Assembly: GCA_910583555.1 (NCBI GenBank)
Contig: CAJTXO010000019.1
Span: 5,379-69,378, forward strand
Source: an uncultured Eubacterium sp.
Lineage (GTDB): Bacteria; Bacillota; Clostridia; Lachnospirales; Lachnospiraceae
Length of the DNA stretch: 64,000 bases
Direction: 5' to 3'
Shown: positions 4,234-48,385 of the stretch, piece after piece
Layout of the letters: each line of letters opens with the position of its first letter
Numbering within the stretch: position 1 is the stretch's first letter
Translations under genes and position numbers: made by a program
The notes under the pieces: model-generated
What the model saw: the letters and a program-made list of their open reading frames with translations, nothing else
The model's database searches: none
Told to the model about the DNA's origin: nothing

Positions 4234-4881
4234 TTAATCACAGTTTTCTTCTTCATCCTCATCACTGAGCACCGATTTTCGAGAAGTAAGCATCTCCTCG
4301 GTAAAGTAGTTCCGGTCCACTCTACCACGGATCCCTTCCACTCTTCCAGCATCCGTATACTGCCAACCGGCCCAGCGTTTCCAGTGATTGCGCATATCCG
4401 GCCGCGCAACTCCGTAATCGGCGATCCAGAGCGGATACACCGCGAGCCTCGCGTCAAACGTATTTGTTGCATTGTTGGCGTCGCTGTAGATCGCGACCCG
4501 CTTGCCCGTCACCTCCCTCAGCTCCTGGAGAAAAGCAGTGGAAACATCATTGATCTGATCTTTCGTCAGGCTGTCGAAGGACTCAAAGTCCATGACTGGA
4601 CAGCCGTGATAGACCTTTCCCCATATGACATCCGCGAAATGCCTCGCCTGTGCCCGCGCCTCTTCTTCGCTGCCCGCGGTCACATAGTGGTAAAAACCGA
4701 TCTTCAGCCGGGCCTTCCTGGCCTCCCTGTAATTCCGTTCAAAATCAGGGTCGATATACGATACCCCTTCACTGGCCTTCATGTAAACAAAGCGGATCCC
4801 TGCCCGCTTAACCTCCTGAAAATCAATGTCGCCCTCCCAATGGCTTACATCAATCCCCTCGATTCTCCGTTCCCTTCTCAT
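4234..4881 (-). CDS. GH25 family muramidase (lysozyme)
   Basis: ORF 4234..4929. IEGIDVSHWEGDIDFQEVKRAGIRFVYMKASEG...FYHY is the GH25 signature. The ATG at 4881 (MRRERRIEG) has a GAGGTG RBS and avoids overlap with hisC. No signal peptide is visible. Confidence 0.8.
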   Translation of the reverse strand: MRRERRIEGIDVSHWEGDIDFQEVKRAGIRFVYMKASEGVSYIDPDFERNYREARKARLKIGFYHYVTAGSEEEARAQARHFADVIWGKVYHGCPVMDFESFDSLTKDQINDVSTAFLQELREVTGKRVAIYSDANNATNTFDARLAVYPLWIADYGVARPDMRNHWKRWAGWQYTDAGRVEGIRGRVDRNYFTEEMLTSRKSVLSDEDEEENCD

Positions 4882-4925
4882 CACACACCTCACTGCCGCC
4901 TTTACTCCAGTATATGATGAAAAAA

Positions 4926-5996
4926 TCAAAATGTGCCTGTAATTTCACGGACCGCCTCAAGAAATCGATCCATCTGTTCCTCCGTCCCCACTGTGATGCG
5001 CAGGTAATTTTCAATGCGCTTCTTACTAAAATACCTCACATATATATGCCGCTGTTTTAATTTCTCAAAAATCTCTGTTGCCGGTACCGTGTGGTGCGAA
5101 ACAAAAAGAAAATTTGTCTGGGATTGTTTGACATCAAATCCCATCTCACGCAGCGCTTCTTTCACGCGCTCTCTCGTCCTCATCACTTTCTGCAGGTTTT
5201 CCTGAAAGTACTGCTCGTCTCCCAGTGAAGCGATTCCCATACGGATAGACGCAGTATTGATCGTATACGAATTGATGGATTCTTTTACGTCATTCAACGC
5301 CTGTATGAGATTCTCGTTCCCCATCGCGTAACCGATGCGCATCCCCGCCAGAGAGCGGGATTTTGAATACGTGCGCACGACGAGGAGATTATCATACTTC
5401 GAAATCAATGGCAGGACAGTCTCTCCGCCAAAATCCACATAGGCCTCATCGATGATCACGACGACGCCCGGATTGGCACGGATCACGTCCTCAATCTGCG
5501 AAACCGTCATGCCGATCGAAGTCGGCGCGTTTGGGTTCGCGATGACAACCCCGCCATTTTCCCGGTCATAATCGGCCGGGTCGATCGTAAGGTCAGGCCG
5601 CAGCGCCATACACGCAAATGGAATGCGGTAAACCTCCGCCCAGACCGGATAAAAAGAATAGGTAATATCCGCAAAAAGAATCGGCTTGTCCGCATTAAAA
5701 AAGGTGAGAAAAGCCAGCGAAAGCACATCATCCGAGCCTACGCCGACAAATACCTCCCTCTCCGAAATCCCGTGATACGCTGCCAGACTCCTCACCAGAC
5801 TGCCCGCCGAAAGTTCCGGATACAGGGAAAAAGCGGCCGGATCCAGATTGTGACAGGCTTCAAATACAGCCGGTGACGGCGGATAGGGATTTTCATTGGT
5901 ATTTAATTTGATCATATCTGTTTCATTTGGCTGCTCGCCCGGTACATACGGCGTCACCCGGCGCACATGAGCAGTCCATTCAGGTCTTTTGTCCAT
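4926..5996 (-). CDS. hisC: Histidinol-phosphate aminotransferase
   Basis: ORF 4926..6047. Motifs LNTNENPYPPSP and YSKSRSLAGMRIGY (PLP lysine). The ATG at 5996 (MDKRPEW) is preceded by GGAGG. Confidence 0.85.
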   Translation of the reverse strand: MDKRPEWTAHVRRVTPYVPGEQPNETDMIKLNTNENPYPPSPAVFEACHNLDPAAFSLYPELSAGSLVRSLAAYHGISEREVFVGVGSDDVLSLAFLTFFNADKPILFADITYSFYPVWAEVYRIPFACMALRPDLTIDPADYDRENGGVVIANPNAPTSIGMTVSQIEDVIRANPGVVVIIDEAYVDFGGETVLPLISKYDNLLVVRTYSKSRSLAGMRIGYAMGNENLIQALNDVKESINSYTINTASIRMGIASLGDEQYFQENLQKVMRTRERVKEALREMGFDVKQSQTNFLFVSHHTVPATEIFEKLKQRHIYVRYFSKKRIENYLRITVGTEEQMDRFLEAVREITGTF

Positions 5997-7218
5997 CTTT
6001 ACCTCCATCCTCCGTACCCAAAGAATAAATATCCGCCAGCTTTTCAAACGCCGGCAGCGCCCGCACGATCATATCATAACTGACACAGTATGCGATGCGC
6101 ACATATCCCGGACACGCAAATGAACTTCCGGGAACGACGAGAAGGTTTAATTCTTTTGCTTTCGCCGCGAACGCCGCATCATCCGGCTCTAAGGATTTCA
6201 CGAACAGGTAAAAAGCCCCGTCCGGACTGGCGCATTCGTAGCCGTATTTCCTGAGATGTTCCACTAACAGCAGGCGGTTGCGGTCATAACTTTCCACATC
6301 CACTTTCGCGTCAATACATCTGGCAATCACTCGCTGCTGGAGCGAAGGGGCGTTGACAAATCCGAGGATTCTCGTGGCCACGTTTGCCGCCGACATGATC
6401 CGGCCGGCATCCACCGCCTCGTCTGGAATGACGAGGTAGCCGATGCGCTCACCGGGCAGAGAAAGAGACTTGCTGTAGGAATAACCGACAATCGTATTCG
6501 CGAAATATTTTGTAACATAAGGTACTTTTACGCCATTATATACGAGTTCCCGGTACGGCTCATCCGAAATCAGATAAATATCCGTCCCGTATTCTTCCTG
6601 CTTCCTCGTCATAGCGTCCGCCAATCCGCGCAGCACCTCTTCGGAGTATACGACTCCCGTCGGGTTATTCGGCGTATTGATGATGACAGCTTTCGTCCGC
6701 CTGGTGATGCGGCGCTCAAATTCAGGCAGATCGGGCATAAACGTCTCCGTATCGGGCGGAACGACTACCGTCGTTCCACCCACATTTGCCACATAATTCC
6801 TGTATTCCCCGAAAAACGGGGCAAATACGATCACTTCGTCGCCGGGATCCACAAGCGCCTTCAGGATCACATTCAATCCCCCGGCCGCGCCGACCGTCAT
6901 CACGATATTCTCTTCGGTAAAATGGGTTCCGTGTTTTTGATTCAGGCTGTCTGCTACGGTCCTTCTGACATCCTCATAGCCAGAATTATTCATATACCCG
7001 TGCAGCTCATTCGGCTTCTCATTTTCGATAATGTCGATCACCGCCTGCCGCACCTCTTCTGGCGGCTCCACGCTCGGATTCCCGAGGCTGAAATCAAACA
7101 CATTGTCCTCTCCGTACTCCGCCGCCATCTTCTTTCCTTCCTCAAACATGGCGCGGATTACGGAACTCCCATTTACCAGCTCTTCCATCTGCTTTGCAAT
7201 CATTGAAAAAATCTCCAC
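5980..7218 (-). CDS. Class I/II PLP-dependent aminotransferase (aspartate/alanine aminotransferase-like)
   Basis: 412 aa. Motifs FSLGNP, NTPNNPTG and YSYSKSLSLPGERIGY. The start could be M1 (7218) or M6 (7203). Confidence 0.85.
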   Translation of the reverse strand: MEIFSMIAKQMEELVNGSSVIRAMFEEGKKMAAEYGEDNVFDFSLGNPSVEPPEEVRQAVIDIIENEKPNELHGYMNNSGYEDVRRTVADSLNQKHGTHFTEENIVMTVGAAGGLNVILKALVDPGDEVIVFAPFFGEYRNYVANVGGTTVVVPPDTETFMPDLPEFERRITRRTKAVIINTPNNPTGVVYSEEVLRGLADAMTRKQEEYGTDIYLISDEPYRELVYNGVKVPYVTKYFANTIVGYSYSKSLSLPGERIGYLVIPDEAVDAGRIMSAANVATRILGFVNAPSLQQRVIARCIDAKVDVESYDRNRLLLVEHLRKYGYECASPDGAFYLFVKSLEPDDAAFAAKAKELNLLVVPGSSFACPGYVRIAYCVSYDMIVRALPAFEKLADIYSLGTEDGGKDGQKT

Positions 7219-10200
7219 TTATTTGATCTTAATGGTTATCGTTTTCTTAACTTTCTTAACTTTTGCCGTTACTTTTACCGTTCCTTTTTTCAGCGCTTTC
7301 AGTTTCGCCTTATTCGCGCCCTTCGCCGTGACTTTAGCAAGTTTCTTCTTATTCACTGACCATTTTACTTTGCCGGAAACATTTTTCAGCTTCGCTTTGA
7401 GTGTAATGGTCTTACCTTTCTTCACGGTTTTCTTTGCCGTAATGGAAATCGACGCTTTCTTTGCGGTCGTCTTCGGTTTTGGCGTACTCGTCGGCGTGTT
7501 GCTCGGCGCCGGTGTCGGCACATTTCCTGGTACGGATGGGGACGGTACAGGCGTAGCCGGCGTGTCAGGCGTCGGCGTATCATTCGACGGCGCGTCCACA
7601 CCCCTCAAAATCTTGACCGTATACGTTTTCGAAGTCTCATGGTCTTCGGCAAATACTTTCAGCGAAAGGGTCGTCGTATCCTCTGTCAGCAGATAATCCA
7701 GCTTTCTTCCGTCATTTACGAGGGCATCGTTGATATACAGCAGTCCGTAACGGTCCGCGATGTCAAATTTCAGCTTCGTACTTCCTGTTCCGGCCGGAAG
7801 ATATACGGTAAAGGTATCGCCTTCACTGCGCACTTCTCCGTTGCTGCTCGTCACTGCAGTCAGCACCGCGTTTTTATCAAAGTTTTTCGTCATCGAAAGA
7901 CCGCCGACCAATCTTGCGCTGTCTTCTGTCGCCGATGCACTCTCGAACTTCACAGTCACAACCGTGTAGGATGTTTCCACACCCTCGTCATCTGCCACGG
8001 AAATCGTCTTCAAGGCAGCCGCCAGCACATCTGCCGGAATCTCAAAATACTCCATGAAAAACTGATCGTCGCCTTTGTAATCAAGCGTCTTTTCCGCGAT
8101 CACCTGATCGCCGACCGAAATCTTCATCGTCTTGCCATTGTCCTCTTTGGCGAAACGGCAGAGTACGGAATTTGTCTTGTCCTTGTCAACGATGAAATTG
8201 TACATGAAATAACCGCCTGCTTTGGCACAGCGGGTACTTCCGCCATTTTCGATCGTACCTGCCATCGAATCCTTCTCCTGCATCTGATGGATGACATCGT
8301 TTTCGTACTGTCCATATCCCGGCTGGGTGGAATCCAGCATACTGGAATTTACCCTTCCATTCTGTTTTCCTTCGAGGATCGCGCCCTCATCGGCCACGTC
8401 AAACGGGCTCTCAAAATACCAGTAAATCCCGTATCTCTCGTCATTTAACGTATTAAATGGCACAAACGTCAGGCCATCTTCAAAGTTTTCCTCCGCATTG
8501 GTGCCTGTCATTTTAAACGTAAGCGTATCCGCGGATTCATCTTTCACCAAATAGCTGTCGATGTTTTCGATAAATTCATCCATGGAGAGCATTTCCTGAA
8601 TGGAAAGTGTCTCGTTGGCAAACGGAGTAGCAGCCTGCGAATCACCATACTTCATCGTAATATCCTTTTCCTCTGAACCTACCACCTTATAAAGCGGTGC
8701 CGTCAGGCTCGCTCCTGCCCATGTCGTTTCCTTCATGCGCTTTGTACCGAGTTTCGCGGCCAGAACGGTCGGTCCGTACTGGAAACCATATACCGTATTG
8801 TTGTCCGGCAGCCCCGCAGCCGTCACGGCCATCGGATACTGAATCGTCACCTCATCGTTTTCCTTCCACTCACGGCTGATGGATATGTAGCCGTTAGAGG
8901 CCGCATCTTTGATCGTCGTCCCGTTTACCTTTACTGTCACCTTGCCACTGGCCCAGTCCGGCACACGCAGCGCGATCACTGCGTTCTGCGACGCGCCGTT
9001 CAGCATATGAACCCTCAGCGTCGCCACATCCGATTTCGTCACATCCGATTCCTGCGTGATCTCCATGTTCTTCTCTTCCCATTTTACTTTGGAAGCGACA
9101 TACTGGTTTACGACCAATGTATTGTCATTGTGGAAATAGATGCTGTCGCCAAGTTTCGTAAAGTTCTCCATCCCGCTGCCGGTACAACACCAGTACATGT
9201 TCTTTGCCGGATCCGGATCACCAAATGTCTTAAAGTATCCGGTCGCCATCGGGATAAAGTAAGCAGCCGCCCCTTCTTCCGATTTCACAGCTCCCATGAT
9301 CGAGTTGCGCAGCGTCGTCTCATAGTAATCGGAATACTTTTTCTCCCCTGTCACTTTGTACAGCTCGCGCGACAATTTCAGCATATTGTGGGCACAACAG
9401 CTTTCACAATTCGTCTTCGTACGTGTCGCATCCAGCTTCCCTGCCTCACGGAAGTGCTCCATCACACTCACGCCTCCGGTTATGTAGGAATAGTAATCCA
9501 CTGCCACATCCCAGAACTTCTCTGCGTATTTCAGATACTTCTCATCTTCTTCTGTCGCCTCTCCCCTTGCTTTTAAGACGGTATATCGTTTTAACGCTCC
9601 GACAAATTTCGGAATCGCCGTATTTGCATGCTTTCCATTCAATGTGTTTTCATCTCCGGCAAGCACTGCTTCCAACACTTCACGTTCTGTTACACCATTA
9701 TTGTTTACCTTCACCCGATCCTCATCAAACTGGTGGGCCGCCTCTAAGTGGTTCGGATCACCAGAGTAGAAATACAGATCGTACATGCAGTCATTCATCC
9801 CGCCATACTCGACACTGAGTACACGTTTTCTAGTCGCATCGTTCCACTTACTAACGCGGTTATACACCCATGTTCCAAGTTTCTTCGCTGTCTCCAGCGC
9901 TTCCTCATTTCCAGTGAACTTATACGTATCTACCAATCCGGCTACCATTTTGTGCATATTGTACCACGGCACCCAGATTTCAGTCGTATATCCGACTTTC
10001 TCAACCACATCAAACTGATACTCCACATTGTCTTTCTTGCTGATCTTTGCTCCGAACAAAAATCCCGTGTCCAGCTTATCCTGGCATTCCTTCAGTCCGG
10101 AAATGATGTCGTCCAGTTTCTGTTTCAGTTCCTGGTCGCCGGTCGCTTTCACTCCCTGCGCGCATGCAGATAAATAATGTCCGACGCAGTGTCCGCCAAG

Positions 10201-35299: not shown

Positions 35300-36136
35300 T
35301 TACTGTTCTTCCTGTTCTTCCTGTTCCTTCATCTTCCGCGAAACAATCCGGACCAGCTCTTCTTCTGGAGTTTCCGGACATCTGCGCAGAACACGGTCGA
35401 GGATTTCGATCACTTTTTCCAGATACGCGATCGAGTGTCCCTCGCGGATCAAATGCTTCAATACATCAGTCAATAAACCGTATGAAATGCGGCCGGGTAC
35501 GGCCCCGCTGACCAGCACGGGGTATTTGATCTGCAGATTGTCGGTCAGTTCTTTGACCAGCTCCTGATTCAGTATATGGGCGTAATTATCCTGTACGGCT
35601 TTGCCCAGACAGCCGCAAATATAGTCACAGGTATACTCGTCCACAGATGTGAGCCGCTCAAAATACAGTTTGCGGCGGTAGGATACAATCTGAAATTCGT
35701 CTGTTTCCAGTTCTAGTTTATCCCGTACCCGTACGACCGGCATTAAGATTCCCTCTGCGGCCAGCTTTTCGCGCTGTTCTATTATTTTCTGCATGTAGGC
35801 GTCGTTCATGAAGATCGGTACCAATTTTTCGCCGAAGATCAGTTCCAGTGGTTCCAGACAATTGCGGAGACGGCTCCATACTACTTCATGGCGTCGGTCG
35901 GGGTTTTGGCTTTGTCCCGGGGGATTTTTAATCGATATGTCTAATAGTTCATCTGCGCTGATCGCCAGAATCCGGCAAACTTCGGTTAAGAGGGAGAGAT
36001 CGGGCAGGCTCTGGCCGCGCTCCCATCTGCTCAGTGCCTGCGGCGTCACACCGATTCGGGCGGCGAGCTGCTCCTGTGTCATATTGTTGTTTTGACGAAG
36101 CCGGGAGATCCGGTTTCCAAAATGTGTTTGATCCAT
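35300..36136 (-). CDS. XRE-family HTH protein fused to an FlhA-C-terminal-like (FHIPEP cytoplasmic) domain
   Basis: 278 aa. The N-terminus IGVTPQALSRWERGQSLPDLSLL is a Cro/C1 HTH. The rest (LMPVVRVRDKLELETDEFQIVSYRRKL... LVKELTDNL..PVLV...ISYGLLTDVLKHLIREGHSIAYLEKVIEIL) follows the pattern I recall for FlhA cytoplasmic domains. Confidence 0.6.
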   Translation of the reverse strand: MDQTHFGNRISRLRQNNNMTQEQLAARIGVTPQALSRWERGQSLPDLSLLTEVCRILAISADELLDISIKNPPGQSQNPDRRHEVVWSRLRNCLEPLELIFGEKLVPIFMNDAYMQKIIEQREKLAAEGILMPVVRVRDKLELETDEFQIVSYRRKLYFERLTSVDEYTCDYICGCLGKAVQDNYAHILNQELVKELTDNLQIKYPVLVSGAVPGRISYGLLTDVLKHLIREGHSIAYLEKVIEILDRVLRRCPETPEEELVRIVSRKMKEQEEQEEQ

Positions 36137-36141
36137 CGCTG

Positions 36142-36327
36142 CTACCTCCTTCTGGGGTTATGCATTTTTATTGGTCTTCTTTTAGTATAGCAGGGATGGG
36201 GGGATTCGTAAAACAAGAGGTGGTTGAGAAGGAAGTCAATTTTATTCAGTCTTTTTCCCTCTCTTGTCATTTTTCTGGTCAAACGCAGATACTTGATGCG
36301 TTCTCCTACCGTATTGTTATCTAACAT
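36142..36327 (-). other. Short ORF with XRE-HTH-like N-terminus only (possible remnant)
   Basis: 61 aa. MLDNNTVGERIKYLRLTRKMT resembles the start of an XRE HTH and then degenerates. It ends 5 nt before the next gene's ATG and lies at the GC/AT transition. Confidence 0.3.
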
Positions 36328-36544
36328 TGTAACACCACCTATTCTATCGTTTCCGTATGTCTCCGATTATAGCACAACAGGTGATCCGCTCCACATCATA
36401 TCACTATACATCGCCTATTTGTTACTATACACCCCAACTTCCTTCCTTTCTTTTTATTAATTGTATTGATCTAAGACTAATAGCAATTAGTTAATGATGA
36501 CTTGTTTTCTCTGCAAATCAACTATTTAACCAGAGTATTTTCAG

Positions 36545-37590
36545 CTAATTAGTATTTGAGTTTTCACAACGATTTTCATTAACACTAATATTTATCTGCT
36601 TACTCCAATAATCATAGAATCGTTTTTTTCTATTTAATAGCTCATTCAAGACAATTAATGACGTCTTTTTTATTAATGCGCGTGCAATGGCAATTCTTTG
36701 TCTTTGTCCTTGAGACAATTTAATTCCTCTTTGCCCAATTTCTGTATCATATTTTTCGGGTAATCCTTCTACAAAGGAATCAATATCAGCCATTTCTGCC
36801 ACTTGCTTTATCTCATCTAATGAGGCATCTTGCTTACCTATACAAATATTATCTTTTATAGACATATCATACAAAAACAATTCTTGAGGCACGACTGCTA
36901 TTTTTTGCCGCAAAGTACTTAACGAATACTTCGCAATCGATTTATTATTGATAAGTATATCTCCCCTAGATGGATGATAGAATCTTTGGAGCAGCTTTAT
37001 TAGTGTAGATTTGCCTCCACCACTTGGTCCAACAATCGCAACTGTTGCACCTTCTGGAACCTAAAAGAGACACCATCAAGTACTTGTTCGCCATTGGAAT
37101 ATGCAAATTTAACATCCTTAAACTCAACAGAAATCGCTCCTTGCCCTATTTCTTCACCTTCTCAATCATTTCTTCTTCCAATTCCATAATTTGGCATAGA
37201 TCTTCAGAATTAGCAATCGCCCCATGAAGTTGACTAATTGCAGTTACTATTCTACCAAATATCTCTGACACAAATCCTAATAAAGTTGTAAAAGCCACAC
37301 ATGCGCCTATTTGTATTTTACCTTCAAACATCAAAAAGAAAACAACTACCAAACCAACAATATAAGCAATATCTTGAGGTGCATTTTTCATTAAATTTCT
37401 GCTAGTTTCAACTATAACCTTTTTAACATCAAGTTGAACTTCTTTCCTACATAATTCACCACAATTATTGATTGTATCTTTTTTTATAAATTCTAGCAAT
37501 ATGATTTTCTTCATAAAAGGAATATTTAAGATATGTAGCTTTTCTCAATACTTCCCATCGCATATTAGTAACAACTGTTTCATTATTCAT
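36545..37590 (-). pseudogene. Decayed ABC exporter (fused TMD-NBD, bacteriocin/multidrug-exporter type)
   Basis: Four defects are visible. (1) Only an N-terminal stub remains from the ATG at 37590. (2) A TMD C-terminal piece (37146..37514) is in a different frame from the NBD. (3) The NBD frame reads ...LDGVSF-TAG-VPEGATVAIVGPSGGGKST...LSQGQRQRIAIARAL..LIVLNE. (4) Walker B Asp is replaced by Asn and the canonical tail is lost. Only about 1.05 kb remains, versus about 1.7 kb expected. Confidence 0.8.
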
Positions 37591-37713
37591 AAACTTACCT
37601 CCGTATGATGGTATCAAAAGTTGAAACTAAACTTTTGATACTGATAATAGAAATTTGACAATATCGGGGATCATTATACGGGTGTCCGCCGTGTCTTCAC
37701 AAATTGGGGAAAT

Positions 37714-38142
37714 TCATTTTAATACTTCTTCCATCCTCACGCTCTTATATTCGAGCGCGTTACCAACTTTCGCCCGAAATTTTCGAAAATTATTACTATT
37801 GACTTTATGTGCGCGGACTTTACTGCACACAATGCGATATAAAATTATATACCCTGATAATTCTGCACGAAACATGACTTCCGCACTCTCTAATTGCGGA
37901 ATCGCCTCGTCAATATTACTACCCTTCAATTCAATAAAATACGCCTTTTTTAAGCTGTCATTTAGCAGCAAAAAATCACAACACTTCTTATTTTTTACCA
38001 ATTCACCATCCAGCTTATATTGCCGAACCTCATATTTTCCATGTGAGTTTGTGGCACGATGCTCCCTTTTTACCCTTTCGTCCCTCGATACAATAATCTT
38101 TTGATCTTTCTTACATCTTGATTTCTCATTTTGTAATAACAA
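37714..38142 (-). CDS. Small PD-(D/E)xK-like (restriction-endonuclease-fold) protein, candidate effector
   Basis: 142 aa. TTG start at 38142 with GGGAGGG 8 nt upstream. The motif CCD56FLLL...YFIE71LK73G is followed by a helix IDEAIPQLE. It lies 30 nt downstream of the ATPase gene, on the same strand. Confidence 0.55.
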   Translation of the reverse strand: MLLQNEKSRCKKDQKIIVSRDERVKREHRATNSHGKYEVRQYKLDGELVKNKKCCDFLLLNDSLKKAYFIELKGSNIDEAIPQLESAEVMFRAELSGYIILYRIVCSKVRAHKVNSNNFRKFRAKVGNALEYKSVRMEEVLK

Positions 38143-38172
38143 CCAAAATCCCTCCCTTTTTCATTCTCATTC

Positions 38173-39456
38173 CTACCTCATACCTAACCCTACCATGTCA
38201 TCAAATTCCTGATTGATCTCATCCGCTGCCCCATCGATCACCTCATTCTTTATTGATTGAAACTCACTATCCAAACAGCATTCCACTTTTCCCCTACTAA
38301 GAAAGTAGGCCATAAAATCCGAATATAAGATCCATTGATACTCGTTTACAATCTTCGACAATTTGTCTTTCGGTACTTTTCCGCTGATGTTGTTCGCATA
38401 CAATAGGTTATTCAATTCCCCCAGTATATAGGGACTATGTGTCGTTACAAGCATTTCATTTCCATTATTTTTTACCGCCGATAGAAACTGCATGATCTTC
38501 TTCTGCGTTTCCGGAAAAAGATGAGATTCTGGTTCCTCTATTATAAAATACGCTTTTCTATTATTTAAGATCTGATAAAATAATACATTTAAAATCCATA
38601 CCACTTCCTGTTGACCGGAAGAAGCAAAATTAAGCTTTACGTACTGAGAATCAGAAACCTGCAATCTTTCTTCTCCTTCTATATTCCGATATTCACCCTT
38701 TAAAATATCCCTCATCAATGCCTCTACGGACCGAAGATATTCTCTATCAATTTTTTTATCTGTTAATAATATCTGATTCTGTATCATTTGATCATAACCG
38801 GTTGAAAAAAGTGTCTTTAGCTGCAAAATCCTCTCCAGGTAATTTTGTGTACAATAATCCAATGTTCTTTTCTGTGCATCATCCATCGAACTATATATAT
38901 AGTTAAGTTGAGAACTCAATAATGTGATCAAACTGCGCCCTGCTGGAATATAAATAATTTCACTTGTATCTTCAAAAAACGTTTCAATCTCTTTTTTGAC
39001 TCCAGCGCATTGATTCTGCCAAAAATCAAACAAATCCATTTTATCCAATTTATGAAGAAAATTTCGAAATTCTTCACTCAGGTCTATCCAAATATAATTT
39101 AGACTCAACGCACTATCCGTTAAGGAAAGCCGGATCCATCGCGTAGGTGTAAAATGATATTCCAAATACATATCATTTCTCATACACCATGTAGAACCAA
39201 ATGTCTGTAGAAAATTTGAACGTATTTCACGGATAAAACGATTTTCACACGACATTTCCATCTGATCAAAGCCACTTAATAATTTATTTTTGCGCAACAG
39301 TGCTAACAATAAATTCTTTATATTTTTAAAGAAAAAAATACTTTTAGCCAGCGTGCTCTTTCCTGATGCCTGTGGTCCTGTCAAAACCATAAATTCTTTA
39401 ATAGAAACCTCACAATCACTGATGGGACCGAGCTTGTGAATTTTTATTTTCTGCAA
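38173..39456 (-). CDS. ABC/AAA_21-like (SMC-head type) ATPase, candidate defence-system sensor/motor
   Basis: 427 aa with a TTG start at 39456 (GGAAGGAAG RBS). Walker A GPQASGKST, Q-loop region IYIPAGRS, signature-like FASSGQQE, Walker B AYFIIEEPESHLFP and H-loop VTTHSPYIL. Confidence 0.75.
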   Translation of the reverse strand: MQKIKIHKLGPISDCEVSIKEFMVLTGPQASGKSTLAKSIFFFKNIKNLLLALLRKNKLLSGFDQMEMSCENRFIREIRSNFLQTFGSTWCMRNDMYLEYHFTPTRWIRLSLTDSALSLNYIWIDLSEEFRNFLHKLDKMDLFDFWQNQCAGVKKEIETFFEDTSEIIYIPAGRSLITLLSSQLNYIYSSMDDAQKRTLDYCTQNYLERILQLKTLFSTGYDQMIQNQILLTDKKIDREYLRSVEALMRDILKGEYRNIEGEERLQVSDSQYVKLNFASSGQQEVVWILNVLFYQILNNRKAYFIIEEPESHLFPETQKKIMQFLSAVKNNGNEMLVTTHSPYILGELNNLLYANNISGKVPKDKLSKIVNEYQWILYSDFMAYFLSRGKVECCLDSEFQSIKNEVIDGAADEINQEFDDMVGLGMR

Positions 39457-39535
39457 TAGCTTTACTTCCTTCCAACTTAATTAATGATACAAGAGAAACA
39501 AAACACCTCGATATTTTACAACGAATTTAGTATAG

Positions 39536-39559
39536 CAAAAAAGGCTGCACCATGCAACC
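39536..39559 (-). terminator. Rho-independent terminator after membrane-protein gene
   Basis: On the minus strand, GGTTGCA-tgg-TGCAGCC followed by T6 (plus-strand A-run 39536-39542). Confidence 0.7.
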
Positions 39560-39573
39560 TCTTTACACATCAT

Positions 39574-40711: not shown

Positions 40712-43700
40712 TCACCTTCTTCGACCCACCCGGATCACAACTTGCTTTTCGCCTTTCTTCTTTCCTTTCAAAGTCAGCATCACTTTCTTTTTCTTCGCCG
40801 AACTCTTCACGAGCCTGACAAGTTTCGAAGAAACCTTAACGGCATCCGTCACCGCTTTCTTATTATTCTGCGCCTTGACCGCAAGGACAATTTTCTTCTT
40901 CCCGCCCTTCTTTAAAACAATAGTCTTCTTTTTCAGCGAAAGCTTCTTCACCTTATTCTGTACTTTCACTTTGACTACAGCCTTTACCACACTGCCGCCC
41001 GCATTTTTCGACTGCAATACCAGGGAAGCCGATGACCCCCTGACAGCCTTCTTATTCGCCGTGATCAACACTCCGGATCCTGTCAGCTTCGCGGAAATCT
41101 TTTTATTCCCGGATACCGATGCCGTCACTTCCGCCGGTTTGCCGGCAAAAGGAGCATCCACCTCCGCGCGATATGCCACCTTCACCGATTTGCCCGGCGC
41201 GATCACTACTGATTTCTTTCCGGGCACGATCGCTTTCGTACCCGAGGCATCTGCTGTCGTTCCCGTATTACGATCTCCCGGCACCTGAGAAAGTCCCGGA
41301 TCCTGTTGCGACGGTGGCTGCGGCATTCCCGTCGGCAGCGCCGGATTCGGCGGTGTTACCCACGGGGCTGGCGGCGCACTTGACGACGGTTTCCCTGTCG
41401 GTGCCGCTGAAGACGGCACTGACGGAGACGCACTCGACACCGGTTTACCCGAAGAGGTCGGCTTGCCTGTTGTCGTCGGCTTGTCTGTAGATCCCGGCTC
41501 ACCTGAGGCTCCCGGCTTACTTGAGGCTCCCGGCTTTCCTGATGCTCCCGGCTTTCCTGTCGCCCCCGGCCCCTCCGTTGCCCCCGGCTTTCCGGAAACC
41601 GCCGGGAAAGCGGACCCTTCTGGCGCCGCGCTTGCCGGCGCTGTCGGTAACGCGCTAGACGTCGGTGTTTTTGACGGCTGCGGCCCGGAACTGCCAGATA
41701 CGTTCACATTCACCGAAGCTGCCAGTCCCGAATTCAGATAATACGCATAAACGGTAGCTGTCCCGTCGCTTTTTCCAGTCACAACACCGTTTTCATCGAC
41801 TGGCGCGACATCGGGATTCGTAGAATAATAGCACACCTCTCCCGCCACGTCATTCCATGGCGCCGCTTTTGCCTGGAGAGCTGCCGTGCTGCCGCCCGTG
41901 AGTTCGATATCTCCTCCGTCACCGATCTGCGCGCAGACCGGTACGGAAGACGACAGTTTGACATGCGTCTGCGCCGTGATCTTTTCCTTTTCCTCTTCAC
42001 GGACATTAAGCTCCAGATCAATGATGCCCCGCTCATTAAAGTCATCTACTCCCGGAGTAAACGGAATCTCCAGTCTCTGCTCCTCTCCTGACGCAAGCGC
42101 CGGTATTTCGATCTCACCGTATTCCCTGACCGGATCCCCGTTCTCATCCAAAGCGCCGAGTGTACCCTTCCCGGGCTTCGACGCCGCATTTCCTGCGTTT
42201 GTGATAACGGTCTCCACATATGGCGCGTCATCTTTCCACACGATGTCCGTCTCATTAAACTGGAGGCTGCTCTTATATGGCACCTCGCGGATACATTGTG
42301 CCTGTTTGCCGCTGCCTGCCGACACCCCTGACTCCGTCACTGTAACTTTTATACTCGTATCGGCGAGATTTTCCGGGATCACCCACGGTACGGTCACTTC
42401 TGTGCCCTCACCTGCATCGAGCGCCACGTCCATATGGTTCTGCTCCGTATTGATCACGGTCTCCACGCCATTCGTGATCTGGCTTACGGTGTAATCAAAC
42501 CCCTCGGCGGGCAAAAGCCCGTTATTCACTACTTCAAAAGTAATATCATCCTGTTCCCCTGCGGCAAGTCTTGACGGAAGGGTAATACCATCCTCTTCTA
42601 CCCCTAAAGATGAAAACGGGTTAAACTCGATATTCACCAGCTTGTTCGTGCCGTAACGGATCGCGCCGTTTTCATCGATCCACTGGTCAAAATGATTTGA
42701 CACGGCGCTGACGCTGCTGTCTGCCGCCATATAAAGGTCAAGTTCATCGATCACTTTATTCCGGTCTGTGATCTGTACCGCTTTTCCAAAGCCCCAGTCT
42801 CCGCTGCCGGAAGCATCCGCATTCTCTATTCCCCTCTTATATCTTACGCCGAACAGCTCCACTCCGGTGGAACTCTCTTCCGCGCCGAAATCGGTATAGA
42901 ATAGATAGAGATCGTCGCCATTTGACGTAAGGGTATAGGAGGACACACTTGTCATCCGCTCTTCGGAACGGGCAATATTCGCATGATCCACGCGGAACTT
43001 CTCATTTGCCAGCTCTTCGTAGATGCTGTCCTCGTAATGTTTCTCATCCATGCCGAGTTCCACAGCACTCTTCTTATACCAATCCTGATTTAGCTTGTTC
43101 TGGCTCTCGATATGCCCATTGATGAAAACTTCTTTATTTACTGTGACCTGTTCCGTCGTTCCGTTTTCCGGCGATACCGTTTCCTGTTTTGAAGTGTCAA
43201 ATAACGCCTCTAATATTTCCGAGACATTCGTGATGTTGATGACATAACCCTCCCTCAGCCAGGTCAGGTACAATGTGCCGCCCAGCTCCGTCAGTTTTGG
43301 ACTTGACTGGCTGACGCTGTCTCTCGTGATCTGGATGGGGTAGTATTGTTTATTTTTCGTTATATTGTAGATGGAAATAAACAGCTCCCTATCCGCATCC
43401 GAATATAAATCCCGGTCCTCATCGATCGTATACGTTGATATCATATAGGTATCGCCGTTTACTTCGGCCGTCGCGGAATGATGATCAAAAACAAGAGGGT
43501 CGCTCAGCGTATCATGGCAGATCGTTACGAACGTTTCCTCATCCTGCATTGTTTCCGTCTGGTAATCATATGTTTTATACGCCATCGCCGAATACACTTT
43601 TTCCACATCGAGCAGATCTGTCTCCTTTTCTACCGTGGCAAGATCGCGTTTCATATAGCTGACATAAATGTTCGTGCCGTCCATATTGATTTGAGGCGCC

Positions 43701-46700
43701 AGATTGAAGTAATTATCATCTACAAGTGTTACCTCTTCTCCCATCGTTTTTGCAGCGATATCATATACTGCCAGGGAAATACCCATCGCATTTAATTTCT
43801 GGACAGAGGTATCGGTATCCGTAAACGCACGATTGGCATCGGCCCATGCAACGATCACCTTTCCGTCTTTTCGCAGCACTTCCGGCGCCGCGTCCACCGT
43901 GCCGTCATTTGCTACTATTTTCGGCATCGACCAGGCGGTGCCGTCATGGACAGCATAGTACAATGCCTGATCGTTCGCCGTATCCGCGCCGCCCCTGCTG
44001 CCCAGAAATACGACCATTTTCTTTTTATTCTCATCATCGAGCGCTATGATCTTCGGCCGGGCGTGTTCTGTCGCATTGTCCAAAAGCGTCTGGAACTGTA
44101 CGATCTCCATAGCGGCCCGCCGCTTTGCGCCGCTGCTGCCGAACGTCTCCATCTCGGATGTTCCGCTCGAATAATCGTGCCGTGTGACCGTCTCGCCATC
44201 CCCATACTCTTTCAGCACCGGATCACTCTGGACATCCGCTGACGCCGCTCTCTGTTTTGACTTTTTACTGTCCGCCGAAAGAAGACCGCCGAAGAAATTA
44301 TAAATTGTCCGGCCCTCCAGCGAACCCCATCCCTTCGTTACGGAGTAGAGGTTCACGTCGATGGAAAAGATCAGCAGGTCCACGCCGATCCCTCCCGTGG
44401 AGCCGATCAGCGCGCCGCTCGGCGAGCCCTCCGTCAGTCCGATATCAAACTGCAGCTTCAGCGTCACGTATCCCCTCGCCGATAAAATACCGCACAATCC
44501 AACCCCGGCCTGCGCCTTTCCGGAGAACATAAGGCTGAATGACGACTCCGGATCTCCGAGCCGCTCCGCTAAATTGCCGCCGTAACTGTTGAAATCGCCT
44601 GCCGTGAGCGCCTCCCGGCCATTCTTCGTCGTATAGGCCACCGTACAGTTTCCCTGCAGCGTCAGCGCGAAATTGACAAAGGCCGGAACGGTGGAAATCA
44701 TCGTATAGGCGGTTTTATTGAAGGTAAAAGTGCCTCCCACGGCGACGGAACCACAGGAAAACGTGTACTCATCCTTTACCGGGTTATAGACGAAATCAAA
44801 CGCCATGACAAACGCCACCTCGACGTTCCAGGCACTCTTATTCATCCCCGCCATCGTTTTCTTTGCCTTGCTGTTCTTATCTTTGCGGATCGCCTTCAGC
44901 GCATTATCCATCGCCTTCTTTTCCGCTTTCAGGTCGCCCTCGCCAAATTCTCCACTGGCTTGCGAATCCTCATACATGCCAAGAAGGATCGTTTCGGCTG
45001 CCGCATCCGACTTCGTCTTTTTTGCCTTCGTGACATTATTATGGAAGTTACTGTAAGCCTGCCTCTTCTGTGATGCGGACAGATTCGGGAGATTGCCGAG
45101 CGAGCCATCCACCCCGACCTGGAGCGTGTAGCCTGTTTTCTCATTATCCCACCACGTCTTGCCAAATGTGAGCAAGCCGGAATCCGCCTCGCCCGTCGCG
45201 TTACCGATGAGCGGGACATTGACTGCTGACGACTGCTTCATTTCGAATGACTGCGCCACCGCATGTTCGTTTTCCACATAGAACACAAGTCCTGTATCCC
45301 GGTCCGGGTACTCGATGGGGAAAGAACCTCCGGTGATCGGATTTCCCTCATCATCCCTAATATCATCCAGTATGAAATTCCCATCCTCATCATAGTGTCC
45401 GTTCTGTCCCACATCTACCCGGTAACTCCTGCTGCTCACGAGCCTGACCTTGATCCGGTCGCCATTATGCAGGTTTTCCGGCATTTTGGGAATCCTGCAC
45501 TCAAAGGTATTGGAATTGCCCTCGCTTTCCCTTACCCGGTACTCATCGGTCTGACCCGTCGCCGTGTAAACCGTGAAGACAGCTTCCTTGATTGAATCCC
45601 TGCCCGGGTCTGCCTTTGCCGTGATCACCAGCGCGTCATCGTAAATGCGCACAGAATTTTGCAGATTGTTTGCTTTCGCGTTATTCTCATCTCTCTCATA
45701 GCGATAAGAAATACTTGTTACTTTGGGCATATCATGGGGGTAATGAATCTCCGTATTGCCGCTGTTGACCATGTATCCCCCGGCTGCCGCCTCATATGTA
45801 TCATCCAGTTTTACATCGGCGATCTGCCCAAAGGAAGCGCCATCTGTCATAAGCATGGGGATGACGTCGCCGCTTACGCCGGTTATGCCGGACATCTCAT
45901 ACACGCCATTTTTCCCCGGCGTTGTACAGGCCGTATCGATCAGCGGCGTCCCGTTATTATCCTTTGTCTGCCCTCCCTTTCCGACAGACAGTGTATAACT
46001 GCTGACCGGAAGTTTTTTCACGGCAAGTCCGTCACTGCGTATCGGCGGATAGGCAGACACAAGCGTGCCCTTCACGGTATATTGTCTGAGCGATGACTTT
46101 AATACTTTCGATACGCCGATCACGATGATATTATCCTCCGCCTCGGCGGCCGCCGTAAACGGAAAATACTGGGTGGTATACGTCGTATTTGCCGTCTGGA
46201 ATTTCACCGTCGGCCGGTAGACATAGCTGTCATCCTCACCCATGCCGTCTTTTGCCCGGATGTTCAACACATAGTCCTTATTTGGCACCGGTTTCATTTT
46301 CTCGGCAACAGGTCCTTTCCCCGGCTGCAGATTTAAAATGTTCTTACCCTTATCATTCGCTTCGAGCAGGGACTGGTCGATCAGCCCGGCGATCTCAAAA
46401 CGGGAAGCGGCGTCATCGTCCGCAAACCGGATTTCGACTTTGTTATCGCTTTTCATGACAAGCGGGCGGATCCAGTATTTCTGAAAGGACTCCAAAAACA
46501 GATCCGACCCATCCATGATCGTATTAAATCTCTTTCCGTCAGTGGAAACCTGATAGCCGACGCAGTCATATCCTTCCTCCGCCGCTTCACCGGAGAGATC
46601 GAGGCTGTCGCCGGCGTGGAACGTATATTCCCTGCCTGCCTTTAAATCCTCGTCGGAAAAATGTCCGCCTGCCGCCCCTTTCGGATTCAGGACTTCCACT

Positions 46701-48385
46701 TTCACATCATTGTAGTCGATCACCGGCTTGAAATTCAGTATCTGCTTATAACCATATCCCTCCTCGCGCACGCCCTGCTGGATCTCGCTGATCCACTGCA
46801 GGAAATACGCATCGTATGGGATGGTATCCAGATAGTTCGTCACCTTTTCGATCTCTTTGTTTACCTCTTCCGTCCGGAAGCCCGCGCCGTTTTTCGACTT
46901 CATCCAGCTTATAAAATCCTGCGGATAATTTTTCGTCACCTTCTGTTCTACATTTCCCGGATCCAATGTGATCTTATACCCCGTGATCTTGCCGAACTTT
47001 CCAGATCTGCCGTTCACATACGTATCACCCACGCTGAATACGAGATTGGACTGGCTCTCATCCCTGTTCGCGTAAATATCCCGCGATCCCATGTCGCCGT
47101 TCCATACCTGCGCGCCGCATTCCACACTGACCTGTACCGGCTCAGCGGACACACTGGAATCTTTTGTACCCGTCCAGTAGCTGAGCGCGTTGGCCGCCTC
47201 CAGAGATACATTGAACTTCCTGTTCATCGCGCACAGGCCATAAAATTTTACATAAGATCTTGGCGTTTTTCCGCCGTTTTCCGCGATCTCAACGGCCGCT
47301 TTTACGATCTCCCCTTCTTCACATGCTTTCAGATCGTCCAGCATGACCTGAAAACGTCCGCTTCCGGCCACGTCCATCTCGATCTTCTTCTCTGTCTCAT
47401 ATGGCGCAAAGGCCAGTGTCTCATTTTTTTCCTCATAATTTGTCCCGGCCTGCGCCGTGTCCCCGCACGTGCGCACCGTCATATCACAGATCGAGTACTC
47501 CGCCCCCGTCCTTTTCACCGTGAGCACCGCTTTCCCGTCCGCGGCCCGGTATTCCGGTTGGGAAAAGGAGATTTTGGAGTGCTCCGCCTTCTCGTCGTCC
47601 TCGATTGAAATGGCACATGTCGTCACCTGAAAGATCTCCGCCCCCTCCGCGTTCGCCAGCAGAAGCGAAAATCCTTCGGTTCCCTCGCTCTTTTCGTCCT
47701 CCAGTATACGGAACCTGACTGTTTTGGACTTTTCTCCCGCATCAAACGTGATCGTGCACTTACTGGAAGCGTCGATATTTTCCATCGTATCGCCCACTAA
47801 TACATCGGACATCGATTCCACAAAGCTTTTTTCCTCTATCTCGCGAAGTTCTCTCGATGCTACGCCCGTCTGCGCTTCCTTTTTGGCGGCAAGGGCACTG
47901 ACTTCGCTCGCGCTCTTCCCCTCGCTCCTGCCCGCGGTGCTTTGAGAGGCGGCGTCCGGCAGCTTATTACCATCGTCTGCGGAAACCTGTCCTTTCACAT
48001 ACTTTTCCAAAAGCGTCTTCCCGTCCCCGCTCTGCTCCACATCCTCCATCACTAATTCATAGTCCTCACCGTAAACGGCAGACATATCGAGCGTTCTCAC
48101 CTCGACGGACGCCGCGCTGTCAAAGTCTCCCTCGCGGTATACGCGCACCTCGTACTCGCCCCGCTCTTTCACCGTAGCAGCCGCCGTGCCAAAATAGATA
48201 CAATTTCCCTCCGGCAGGCTGTCGGCGGGCAGCCGCGACGCCTGAAAGCAGACTGGACTTTTTGCCCCTGCCGCAGCCCGCACATCCGGCGCCACGCCCT
48301 GGCCAAACGGCAGTACGAGACTCGCGCACAGCAGTATACTGACGGTCTTCTTTCCAAATCCTTTCCATTTTTCCTTTACGTTCAT
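40712..48385 (-). CDS. Giant (2557 aa) secreted multidomain surface protein: signal peptide, Calx-beta repeats, large uncharacterised core, beta-propeller-like region, CARDB-like repeats, Big_2, collagen-like G-K-P-G-A linker, Lys-rich Big_2-like tail
   Basis: Uninterrupted ORF. The signal peptide is KKTVSILLCASLVLPFGQG. Calx-beta-like segments include VRTLDMSAVYGEDYEL and FDAGEKSKTVRFRILEDEKSEGTEGFSLLL. CARDB-like segments include ITFEVVNNGLLPAEG and VITNAGNAASKPG. The Big_2 segment is YYSTNPDVAPVDENGVVTGKSDGTATVYA. No LPXTG, SLH or CWB2 motif was seen. Confidence 0.85.
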   Translation of the reverse strand: MNVKEKWKGFGKKTVSILLCASLVLPFGQGVAPDVRAAAGAKSPVCFQASRLPADSLPEGNCIYFGTAAATVKERGEYEVRVYREGDFDSAASVEVRTLDMSAVYGEDYELVMEDVEQSGDGKTLLEKYVKGQVSADDGNKLPDAASQSTAGRSEGKSASEVSALAAKKEAQTGVASRELREIEEKSFVESMSDVLVGDTMENIDASSKCTITFDAGEKSKTVRFRILEDEKSEGTEGFSLLLANAEGAEIFQVTTCAISIEDDEKAEHSKISFSQPEYRAADGKAVLTVKRTGAEYSICDMTVRTCGDTAQAGTNYEEKNETLAFAPYETEKKIEMDVAGSGRFQVMLDDLKACEEGEIVKAAVEIAENGGKTPRSYVKFYGLCAMNRKFNVSLEAANALSYWTGTKDSSVSAEPVQVSVECGAQVWNGDMGSRDIYANRDESQSNLVFSVGDTYVNGRSGKFGKITGYKITLDPGNVEQKVTKNYPQDFISWMKSKNGAGFRTEEVNKEIEKVTNYLDTIPYDAYFLQWISEIQQGVREEGYGYKQILNFKPVIDYNDVKVEVLNPKGAAGGHFSDEDLKAGREYTFHAGDSLDLSGEAAEEGYDCVGYQVSTDGKRFNTIMDGSDLFLESFQKYWIRPLVMKSDNKVEIRFADDDAASRFEIAGLIDQSLLEANDKGKNILNLQPGKGPVAEKMKPVPNKDYVLNIRAKDGMGEDDSYVYRPTVKFQTANTTYTTQYFPFTAAAEAEDNIIVIGVSKVLKSSLRQYTVKGTLVSAYPPIRSDGLAVKKLPVSSYTLSVGKGGQTKDNNGTPLIDTACTTPGKNGVYEMSGITGVSGDVIPMLMTDGASFGQIADVKLDDTYEAAAGGYMVNSGNTEIHYPHDMPKVTSISYRYERDENNAKANNLQNSVRIYDDALVITAKADPGRDSIKEAVFTVYTATGQTDEYRVRESEGNSNTFECRIPKMPENLHNGDRIKVRLVSSRSYRVDVGQNGHYDEDGNFILDDIRDDEGNPITGGSFPIEYPDRDTGLVFYVENEHAVAQSFEMKQSSAVNVPLIGNATGEADSGLLTFGKTWWDNEKTGYTLQVGVDGSLGNLPNLSASQKRQAYSNFHNNVTKAKKTKSDAAAETILLGMYEDSQASGEFGEGDLKAEKKAMDNALKAIRKDKNSKAKKTMAGMNKSAWNVEVAFVMAFDFVYNPVKDEYTFSCGSVAVGGTFTFNKTAYTMISTVPAFVNFALTLQGNCTVAYTTKNGREALTAGDFNSYGGNLAERLGDPESSFSLMFSGKAQAGVGLCGILSARGYVTLKLQFDIGLTEGSPSGALIGSTGGIGVDLLIFSIDVNLYSVTKGWGSLEGRTIYNFFGGLLSADSKKSKQRAASADVQSDPVLKEYGDGETVTRHDYSSGTSEMETFGSSGAKRRAAMEIVQFQTLLDNATEHARPKIIALDDENKKKMVVFLGSRGGADTANDQALYYAVHDGTAWSMPKIVANDGTVDAAPEVLRKDGKVIVAWADANRAFTDTDTSVQKLNAMGISLAVYDIAAKTMGEEVTLVDDNYFNLAPQINMDGTNIYVSYMKRDLATVEKETDLLDVEKVYSAMAYKTYDYQTETMQDEETFVTICHDTLSDPLVFDHHSATAEVNGDTYMISTYTIDEDRDLYSDADRELFISIYNITKNKQYYPIQITRDSVSQSSPKLTELGGTLYLTWLREGYVINITNVSEILEALFDTSKQETVSPENGTTEQVTVNKEVFINGHIESQNKLNQDWYKKSAVELGMDEKHYEDSIYEELANEKFRVDHANIARSEERMTSVSSYTLTSNGDDLYLFYTDFGAEESSTGVELFGVRYKRGIENADASGSGDWGFGKAVQITDRNKVIDELDLYMAADSSVSAVSNHFDQWIDENGAIRYGTNKLVNIEFNPFSSLGVEEDGITLPSRLAAGEQDDITFEVVNNGLLPAEGFDYTVSQITNGVETVINTEQNHMDVALDAGEGTEVTVPWVIPENLADTSIKVTVTESGVSAGSGKQAQCIREVPYKSSLQFNETDIVWKDDAPYVETVITNAGNAASKPGKGTLGALDENGDPVREYGEIEIPALASGEEQRLEIPFTPGVDDFNERGIIDLELNVREEEKEKITAQTHVKLSSSVPVCAQIGDGGDIELTGGSTAALQAKAAPWNDVAGEVCYYSTNPDVAPVDENGVVTGKSDGTATVYAYYLNSGLAASVNVNVSGSSGPQPSKTPTSSALPTAPASAAPEGSAFPAVSGKPGATEGPGATGKPGASGKPGASSKPGASGEPGSTDKPTTTGKPTSSGKPVSSASPSVPSSAAPTGKPSSSAPPAPWVTPPNPALPTGMPQPPSQQDPGLSQVPGDRNTGTTADASGTKAIVPGKKSVVIAPGKSVKVAYRAEVDAPFAGKPAEVTASVSGNKKISAKLTGSGVLITANKKAVRGSSASLVLQSKNAGGSVVKAVVKVKVQNKVKKLSLKKKTIVLKKGGKKKIVLAVKAQNNKKAVTDAVKVSSKLVRLVKSSAKKKKVMLTLKGKKKGEKQVVIRVGRRR
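41493..41600 (-). repeat. Six tandem 18-nt in-frame repeats (CCCGGCTTTCCTGNNGCT) encoding G-K-P-G-A-S/T hexapeptides
   Basis: The units start at 41493, 41511, 41529, 41547, 41565 and 41583, all inside the giant gene. Confidence 0.85.

Follow-up and report, generated by a model that had tools for sequence, protein, structure and literature searches.

Two adjacent genes in a 64,000-nucleotide (nt) stretch of contig CAJTXO010000019.1 from an uncultured Eubacterium sp. of the Lachnospiraceae (the whole stretch analysed, hereafter the window) raise the question of what they encode and whether they represent a new kind of phage defence. An earlier note, made from the sequence alone, had proposed an undescribed cassette and possibly a new family, in which an ABC/AAA_21-like ATPase is paired with a small PD-(D/E)xK-like protein. 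The open reading frame (ORF) list of the window confirmed two co-oriented minus-strand genes with a gap of 30 nt inside an AT-rich islet, and both ORFs are real rather than chance, because both have many homologues. Sequence comparison with published families makes membership of the pair in the "OLD-ABC ATPase + Novel REase" / WonAB family near certain. It is a further gut-Clostridia member of a family known since 2020 and validated as WonAB in 2025, and the novelty proposed for it has to be dropped: the operon was catalogued in 2020 (via PMC12137116), WonAB was characterised in 2025, and PADLOC holds a candidate system, PDC-M29, of this type. The genes and their spacer are as follows.

38173-39456, minus strand: WonA-like OLD-type ABC ATPase, 427 amino acids (aa), TTG start
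38143-38172, minus strand: intergenic spacer of 30 nt with the Shine-Dalgarno sequence of the nuclease gene, GGGAGGG (38156-38150)
37714-38142, minus strand: WonB-like "novel REase", predicted divergent PD-(D/E)xK nuclease, 142 aa, TTG start

Hidden Markov models (HMMs) made only from the published members in Tables 4 and 5 of PMC12137116 (6 ATPases and 9 nucleases) matched exactly two of the 601 ORFs in the window, namely the ATPase (285 bits, expect value (E) 3e-86) and the nuclease (78 bits, E 1.3e-23). In BLASTP comparisons, the ATPase aligned end-to-end with WonA, reaching residue 402 of 427 (25% identity, E 2e-29), as well as with the published family members of Geobacillus (35%, E 1e-65) and Gloeothece (33%, E 4e-59). 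For the nuclease, BLASTP gave 39% identity to WonB over 75 aa and 37% to the Gloeothece verrucosa protein over 136 aa (E 1.4e-22), with 36-37% identity to the Geobacillus/Gloeothece members (E 1e-22 and 9e-15), and hhalign placed it with WonB at a probability of 98.7% (E 3e-16). Every residue found to be essential by mutagenesis of WonAB (PMC12137116) is kept in the window pair: K33, R174, E308 and H340 of the ATPase fall on WonA K34, R182, E300 and H333, and K73 of the nuclease falls on WonB K71 (hhalign). The similarity also extends to architecture. The pair shares with the family its two proteins, their order and their sizes (140 aa for WonB, 142 aa here), an N-terminal IV(S/A)RD...RE(H/Y)R..N region and a CDF/Y...(F/L)(I/V)ELKG...Q core. 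Homology to WonA includes the C-terminal extension, homology to WonB covers the nuclease core, and the A-then-B gene order is the same. The features that mark membership, that is the ABC motif set, the C-terminal ATPase extension, a ~140-aa D...ExK...Q nuclease, an ATPase-then-nuclease operon and sequence similarity of both proteins, are thus all present.

The operon family was catalogued in the ABC-ATPase survey of Krishnan, Burroughs, Iyer and Aravind (Nucleic Acids Research 2020), as cited in PMC12137116, where Supplementary Table 5 gives Anaerovibrio lipolyticus SHI83489.1 + SHI83462.1 as the type example and where the "OLD-ABC ATPase + novel REase" family is reported in 0.96% of genomes. 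WonAB resides in the WASA-1 prophage of V. cholerae and consists of WonA, an OLD-type ABC ATPase, and WonB, a 16.1-kDa variant PD-(D/E)xK nuclease (PMC12137116, Nature Microbiology 2025). Both proteins are needed for defence against ICP1 and Vequintavirinae, and this defence is abortive. WonB, for which binding to WonA's dimerised C-terminal extensions is predicted, is toxic only with active WonA; when active, it stopped growth, compacted the nucleoid and abolished translation but left genomic DNA undamaged, and the combination of intact DNA with a stop of translation suggested an RNA target (PMC12137116).

Within this family, the window pair stands apart in several respects. Its clade is a gut Lachnospiraceae/Clostridia branch, with no close relative among the entries compared from the PMC12137116 tables, which cover RefSeq complete genomes. 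While WonAB is prophage-borne, located 3' of a regulator and found mainly in Gram-negatives, the window pair sits on the chromosome without a conserved regulator and belongs to Gram-positive gut anaerobes. Several published nuclease members (Gloeothece, Desulfonema, E. coli and Geobacillus) carry a CxxC or CxxxC motif near the N-terminus, the first Cys of which is replaced by Ser in the window nuclease; S8-x-C10 is typical of the Lachnospiraceae-type clade, and V. cholerae WonB lacks a Cys in this place. An N-terminal metal site may exist in some members of the nuclease family and be absent in others.

Gene 1 is, judged by its motifs and domain matches, an ABC ATPase of the AAA_15/AAA_21 type and of the OLD/Septu/PARIS kind (Pfam AAA_15, 5.5e-23; AAA_21, 1e-14). 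All motifs quoted for it in the earlier note are in place, comprising Walker A (GPQASGK33ST), the signature (SSGQQE, 279-284), Walker B (FIIEEPESHLFP, 304-315, with glutamates E307/E308) and the H-loop (TTHSP, 338-342, with H340), and R174 is the counterpart of WonA R182. The AlphaFold2 (AF2) model, with a predicted local distance difference test (pLDDT) score of 85 and a predicted template modelling (pTM) score of 0.88, shows an ABC head, a large helical/beta insert between Walker A and the signature, and a C-terminal extension (~350-427) that contains a folded beta/alpha module (363-426). The nearest solved structures to this model were PtuA (9n69 and 8eea; Septu/retron), AriA (8v45; PARIS) and Rad50, at a template modelling (TM) score of ~0.4 and 11-16% identity, and a sequence search of the PDB with the ATPase returned generic ABC ATPases only and nothing closer than these three. 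Some assemblies (conspecific contigs L101 and L103; proteins P0391 and P0399) annotate the ATPase as 180 aa. Natural ATPase-null alleles were rejected as an explanation, since the DNA is 100% identical to the window and the short form is therefore a gene-calling artefact arising from the TTG start rather than a truncation.

Gene 2 is, on its structural model, a minimal and divergent PD-(D/E)xK nuclease fold whose function is predicted. The motifs CCD56FLLL, YFIE71LK73G and Q83LE are present, and in the AF2 model (pLDDT 95.1, pTM 0.90) D56 lies where strand 57-61 begins, strand 66-73 carries both E71 and K73, and helix 77-91 contains Q83. The top Foldseek matches were almost all PD-(D/E)xK proteins, among them Hjc, NucS/EndoMS, Can2, T7 endonuclease I, BspD6I, MunI and Mus81, and the best viral match is annotated "PD-(D/E)XK nuclease superfamily protein" (8e-4). 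An exhaustive profile search revealed a large family of stand-alone ~140-aa proteins, with 2,062 representatives of 50% identity clusters at E <= 1e-3 and 669 at E <= 1e-10; the exact 142-aa protein was found on 147 contigs. Among relatives with at least 42% identity, C55, D56, E71, K73, Q83 and R103 are invariant, and down to 28% identity this holds for N32, D56, E71, Q83 and R103, with K73 kept in at least 90%. In the joint alignment with the published members, N32, D45, D56, E71, L72, K73 and Q83 are invariant. Because the model is confident, the Foldseek matches are of the PD-(D/E)xK type and the core residues are kept, the minimal PD-(D/E)xK core that had been read from residue spacing is correct, and the triad D56/E71/K73 is conserved among homologues. 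Searches of the nuclease against Pfam, NCBIfam, PHROGs and PADLOC assigned it to no curated family and gave sub-threshold scores for NOV_C (0.069) and Cas4 (0.018) only, both of which we take to be PD-(D/E)xK families, and no PDB sequence was matched by a profile of the nuclease family. As a separate observation, a 187-aa protein on a 592-bp metagenome contig (P0120) joins a ResIII-type helicase motif I (DETGIGKT) in-frame to the C-terminal two-thirds of a nuclease homologue; this chimera is probably a rearrangement or deletion product.

The relation to catalogued defence systems was examined by domain and PADLOC scans. PADLOC-DB v2.0.0 lists PDC-M29 and PDC-M47, each with an A and a B model, as candidate systems, and no mention of PDC-M29 was found in the literature searched. 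The best specific matches of the window ATPase were PDC-M29A (4.4e-24, covering residues 304-423), PD-T4-4_A (4.5e-23) and NsnB, and it also matched PDC-M47A (1e-18). In contrast to this fit of the A model, the window's own nuclease misses the B model of PDC-M29, and the link to PDC-M29B came from scanning 55 divergent nuclease relatives: 24 of the 55 matched PDC-M29B (best 2.3e-12), 12 matched PDC-M47B and a single one matched PD-T4-4_B. WonB likewise has PDC-M29B as its best PADLOC match (1.2e-9), and WonA matches PDC-M29A (3.7e-23). Because WonA and WonB give the same pattern of matches as the window family, PDC-M29 is the same family as WonAB, and because 24 of the 55 relatives and WonB itself match PDC-M29B, the miss reflects the sensitivity of the model and not a lack of homology. 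PADLOC v2.0.0 would not call the pair, since the nuclease has no PDC-M29B match. In substance, the pair therefore falls into an already named system even though the PADLOC v2.0.0 run misses its nuclease, and the failure of the PDC-M29B model on the Lachnospiraceae-type nuclease marks a blind spot of that release.

PD-T4-4, a validated two-gene system of E. coli with an ABC ATPase and a small nuclease (Vassallo et al. 2022, PMC9519451), was described as similar in organisation by the authors of the WonAB study (PMC12137116). It shares with the window pair the ATPase match given above and differs from it in the partner, which is at most marginally related: the single relative that matched PD-T4-4_B did so at 0.0066, and the window nuclease had no match to this model. 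In addition, PD-T4-4 differs in the inserts and the C-terminal extension of its ATPase (per PMC12137116). Septu PtuAB, retron PtuAB, PARIS AriAB, Gabija and OLD have in common with the window pair an OLD/AAA_15-type ABC ATPase sensor combined with a nuclease effector, but their effectors are HNH or Toprim proteins, whereas here a PD-(D/E)xK protein is predicted. Neither window protein contains an HNH domain of the Septu PtuB type (Pfam), and neither matched Toprim or DUF4435 (Pfam, PADLOC and NCBIfam), in agreement with the initial view that the small partner is none of these.

In order to assess the pair as a unit, its distribution was determined in a scan of one genome per species, which yielded 80 loci, 78 of them testable in that sequence upstream of the small gene is available. 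In 78/78 testable loci the small gene is immediately preceded on its own strand by a full-length ATPase homologue, so the two genes always co-occur, and in three homologue look-ups an AAA_15/AAA_21 ATPase was directly 5' of the small gene in unrelated neighbourhoods. The two genes of relatives overlap or are separated by no more than ~45 nt. A mirror-tree comparison of pairwise ATPase and nuclease identities gave r = 0.94, a value reached by 0 of 2000 Mantel permutations. No third gene or regulator recurs across the 78 loci; flanking families occur in 8 of them at most, and those seen repeatedly are generic ABC-transporter paralogues. The XRE regulators and the neighbouring pseudogene, which had been offered as supporting context, do not accompany the pair as conserved neighbours. 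Compared with its flanks, the pair has a lower GC (guanine-cytosine) content in 73 of 75 loci, with a mean difference of 9.6 GC points. Because of this strict adjacency, the co-divergence, the absence of a third gene and the difference in composition from the flanks, the pair is a self-contained, horizontally moving two-gene module. The 80 loci are mostly from Lachnospiraceae, the others from Oscillospiraceae, Peptostreptococcaceae, Selenomonadales, Synergistes, Gastranaerophilales, Prevotella and Bacilli, and their insertion sites are scattered over many different chromosomal positions.

Within the species of the window, both ORFs are intact and their DNA is identical in all six conspecific contigs compared. 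No empty site was found in conspecific strains. The species scan contained no near-identical match to the window (best, 66% identity), so that either the cassette or its contig seems to be missing from the genome that represents the species of the window. This absence may hint at presence/absence variation that is not visible in the metagenome contigs.

What, then, does the pair do? Homology to the experimentally validated WonAB backs the defence role that had been proposed, and by this comparison a defence function is likely. We consider it quite probable that the pair is a two-gene anti-phage operon of the WonAB type that acts abortively via translation shutdown. The ATPase would dimerise head to head via its ABC sites and serve as both sensor of infection and switch, and the nuclease would dock on the ATPase's C-terminal extensions. 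Upon infection, ATP binding and hydrolysis would license the nuclease, which would then halt growth via translation shutdown, such that the infection would abort before progeny are made. The target of the nuclease would probably be tRNA or rRNA and not bulk DNA. A tRNA target would fit a common theme, since PARIS, retron-Eco7 PtuAB and OLD have been described as tRNases. The translation-arrest step is the least secure part of this proposal.

Several observations weigh against a WonAB-type defence module. The identity to WonAB is low, with 25% for the ATPase and 39% over only 75 aa for the nuclease, and therefore the target and trigger of the window pair may differ. The nuclease has no above-threshold match in Pfam and no match to PADLOC PDC-M29B at E <= 1, and its Foldseek scores are individually weak (best PDB E 0.018, TM ~0.3-0.45). 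As for genomic context, neither integrase nor phage genes lie near the pair in the window, the flanks over the 78 loci are mostly housekeeping genes, and clustering with other defence genes was not seen in these loci, for which no formal enrichment test was made. Finally, the pair occupies the same site in every conspecific contig or strain examined. A separate function of the Lachnospiraceae-type clade within the WonAB superfamily, with a trigger or substrate not shared by the other branches, appears rather doubtful to us.

The explanation that survives best beside WonAB-type abortive defence is that the same parts work as a direct DNA-cutting, restriction-like system, with the ATPase sensing foreign DNA ends or structures and the nuclease cutting phage DNA. 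The restriction-endonuclease fold of the nuclease would suit such a role, as would its structural neighbours Hjc, NucS/EndoMS, T7 endonuclease I, MunI and BspD6I, all of which cut DNA, and PtuA, AriA and Rad50, the closest relatives of the ATPase with a solved structure, work in complexes that sense nucleic acids; an identity to WonAB of only 25-39% leaves room for this difference. However, active WonB arrested growth, compacted nucleoids and abolished translation with genomic DNA intact (PMC12137116), and the related PARIS, retron-Eco7 PtuAB and OLD have been described as tRNases, which makes DNA cutting improbable. Less probable still, and in our view a marginal prospect, is a toxin-antitoxin or addiction module in which a nuclease toxin and an ATPase antitoxin stabilise a mobile element rather than defend against phages. 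A compact two-gene operon with a small, potentially toxic partner, the AT-rich signature of horizontal acquisition, the scattered insertion sites and the Pfam label of AAA_21 ("putative AbiEii toxin, Type IV TA") would all agree with it. Yet WonB is toxic only when WonA is present and catalytically active (PMC12137116), and because of this dependence simple sequestration by an antitoxin is ruled out for WonAB; moreover, mobile-element genes neither lie beside the pair in the window nor turn up repeatedly in the 78 loci, and the pair is chromosomally fixed in the window's species. A housekeeping role of the pair in DNA repair or recombination, or its decay to a remnant without function beside a pseudogene, can be given next to no weight, for although the ATPase fold resembles Rad50/SMC heads, a degraded ABC-exporter gene shares the islet and the flanks in other genomes are housekeeping genes, the pair is patchily distributed over unrelated insertion sites with no near-identical match in the species-representative scan, both ORFs are uninterrupted and show no difference among the six strain contigs compared, the catalytic positions do not vary (K73 hardly does) over ~2,000 cluster representatives, and the validated homologue WonAB is a defence system (PMC12137116).

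With WonAB-type abortive defence, a "hypothetical" gene pair that is common in human-gut Clostridia and present in at least 78 species-level genomes receives a name and a mechanism open to testing, and the clade offers Gram-positive comparative material on the trigger and substrate of WonAB-type systems. The pair reveals no new kind of system, and the clade is widespread in gut commensals.

The same-strand arrangement with a 30-nt spacer implies that the two genes form one operon. Both have a Shine-Dalgarno sequence that is a good match by sequence reading, GGAAGGAAG at 39473-39465 for the ATPase (8 nt 5' of the TTG start) and, for the nuclease, GGGAGGG 7 nt 5' of its TTG start. The remaining features of the locus are listed below.

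39457-39573, minus strand: 5' region of the putative operon, from sequence reading
37611-37641: perfect 12-bp inverted repeat, GTATCAAAAGTT / AACTTTTGATAC, with a 7-nt loop, 73 nt 3' of the nuclease stop
36181-39537: AT-rich islet of ~3.35 kb, delimited by GC profile and a 12-mer repeat, holding the pair and ABC-exporter pseudogene fragments

Upstream of the ATPase gene, a hairpin followed by a T-run (39560-39535) probably ends transcription of the upstream 329-aa gene. The element TGCTATACT (39537-39529) looks like an extended -10 element and is a putative operon promoter; a consensus promoter scan of the region 5' of the ATPase gene did not call it. On the other side of the pair, the inverted repeat may function as a terminator or delimit the cassette. 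Each of five independent metagenome contigs (L089-L093) stops ~89 nt beyond the nuclease stop codon, which suggests strain variation or an assembly-breaking repeat 3' of the cassette.

The AT-rich islet is evident from the GC profile, which drops to 0.31-0.38 over ~36250-39500 compared to 0.45-0.60 in the flanks; the gene pair itself has 35% GC and the flanks 52%. The description of the pair as alone in this islet is not quite right, because three out-of-frame fragments of an ABC-exporter pseudogene (36545-37514, minus strand) share it, of which one derives from the membrane domain, one has a Walker A-like motif and one contains ABC_tran with LSQGQRQR. This pseudogene may have come in along with the defence pair. 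The 12-mer TTTAGTATAGCA has only two copies in the window, at 36181-36192 and 39526-39537 (spacing 3345 nt; 2 observed vs 0.17 expected), which bracket the islet exactly. On the coding strand both copies read TGCTATACTAAA and resemble an extended -10 element, one sitting 5' of an XRE gene and the other 5' of the ATPase operon, and this 12-nt direct repeat may be a target-site duplication or just two similar -10 elements. An XRE-type regulator occupies 35300-36136 and an XRE fragment 36142-36327.

A search of viral contigs with a wonAB quantitative PCR (qPCR) primer gave no match. Homologues were, however, seen on two viral or putatively viral contigs. On IMGVR_UViG_3300011006_000098, a phage contig with Terminase_3 and P22-like portal genes, a solitary nuclease homologue (7974-8453, plus strand; 37% identical) keeps D, E, K and Q, with IELKRKK in place of the family IELKGS, and no ATPase is encoded anywhere along the 12.6 kb. 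This homologue may be an orphan nuclease or act as a decoy or anti-defence protein, and some gut phages may exploit the Lachnospiraceae-type clade, with this intact solitary nuclease serving as decoy or counter-defence. The second contig, MT836320.1 ("UNVERIFIED Bacteriophage sp.", human faeces), carries a full pair at 4576-6275 with 44% ATPase and 41% nuclease identity; it was deposited as phage in an unannotated record and is putatively viral.

Elsewhere in the window, 40712-48385 on the minus strand encodes a giant protein of 2557 aa, whose N-terminus resembles a signal peptide and which contains a repeat region rich in Pro, Ser and Gly. It gave weak matches to Calx-beta and Big_2 only, and in other strains the gene is called with lengths of 2557 to 2770 aa.

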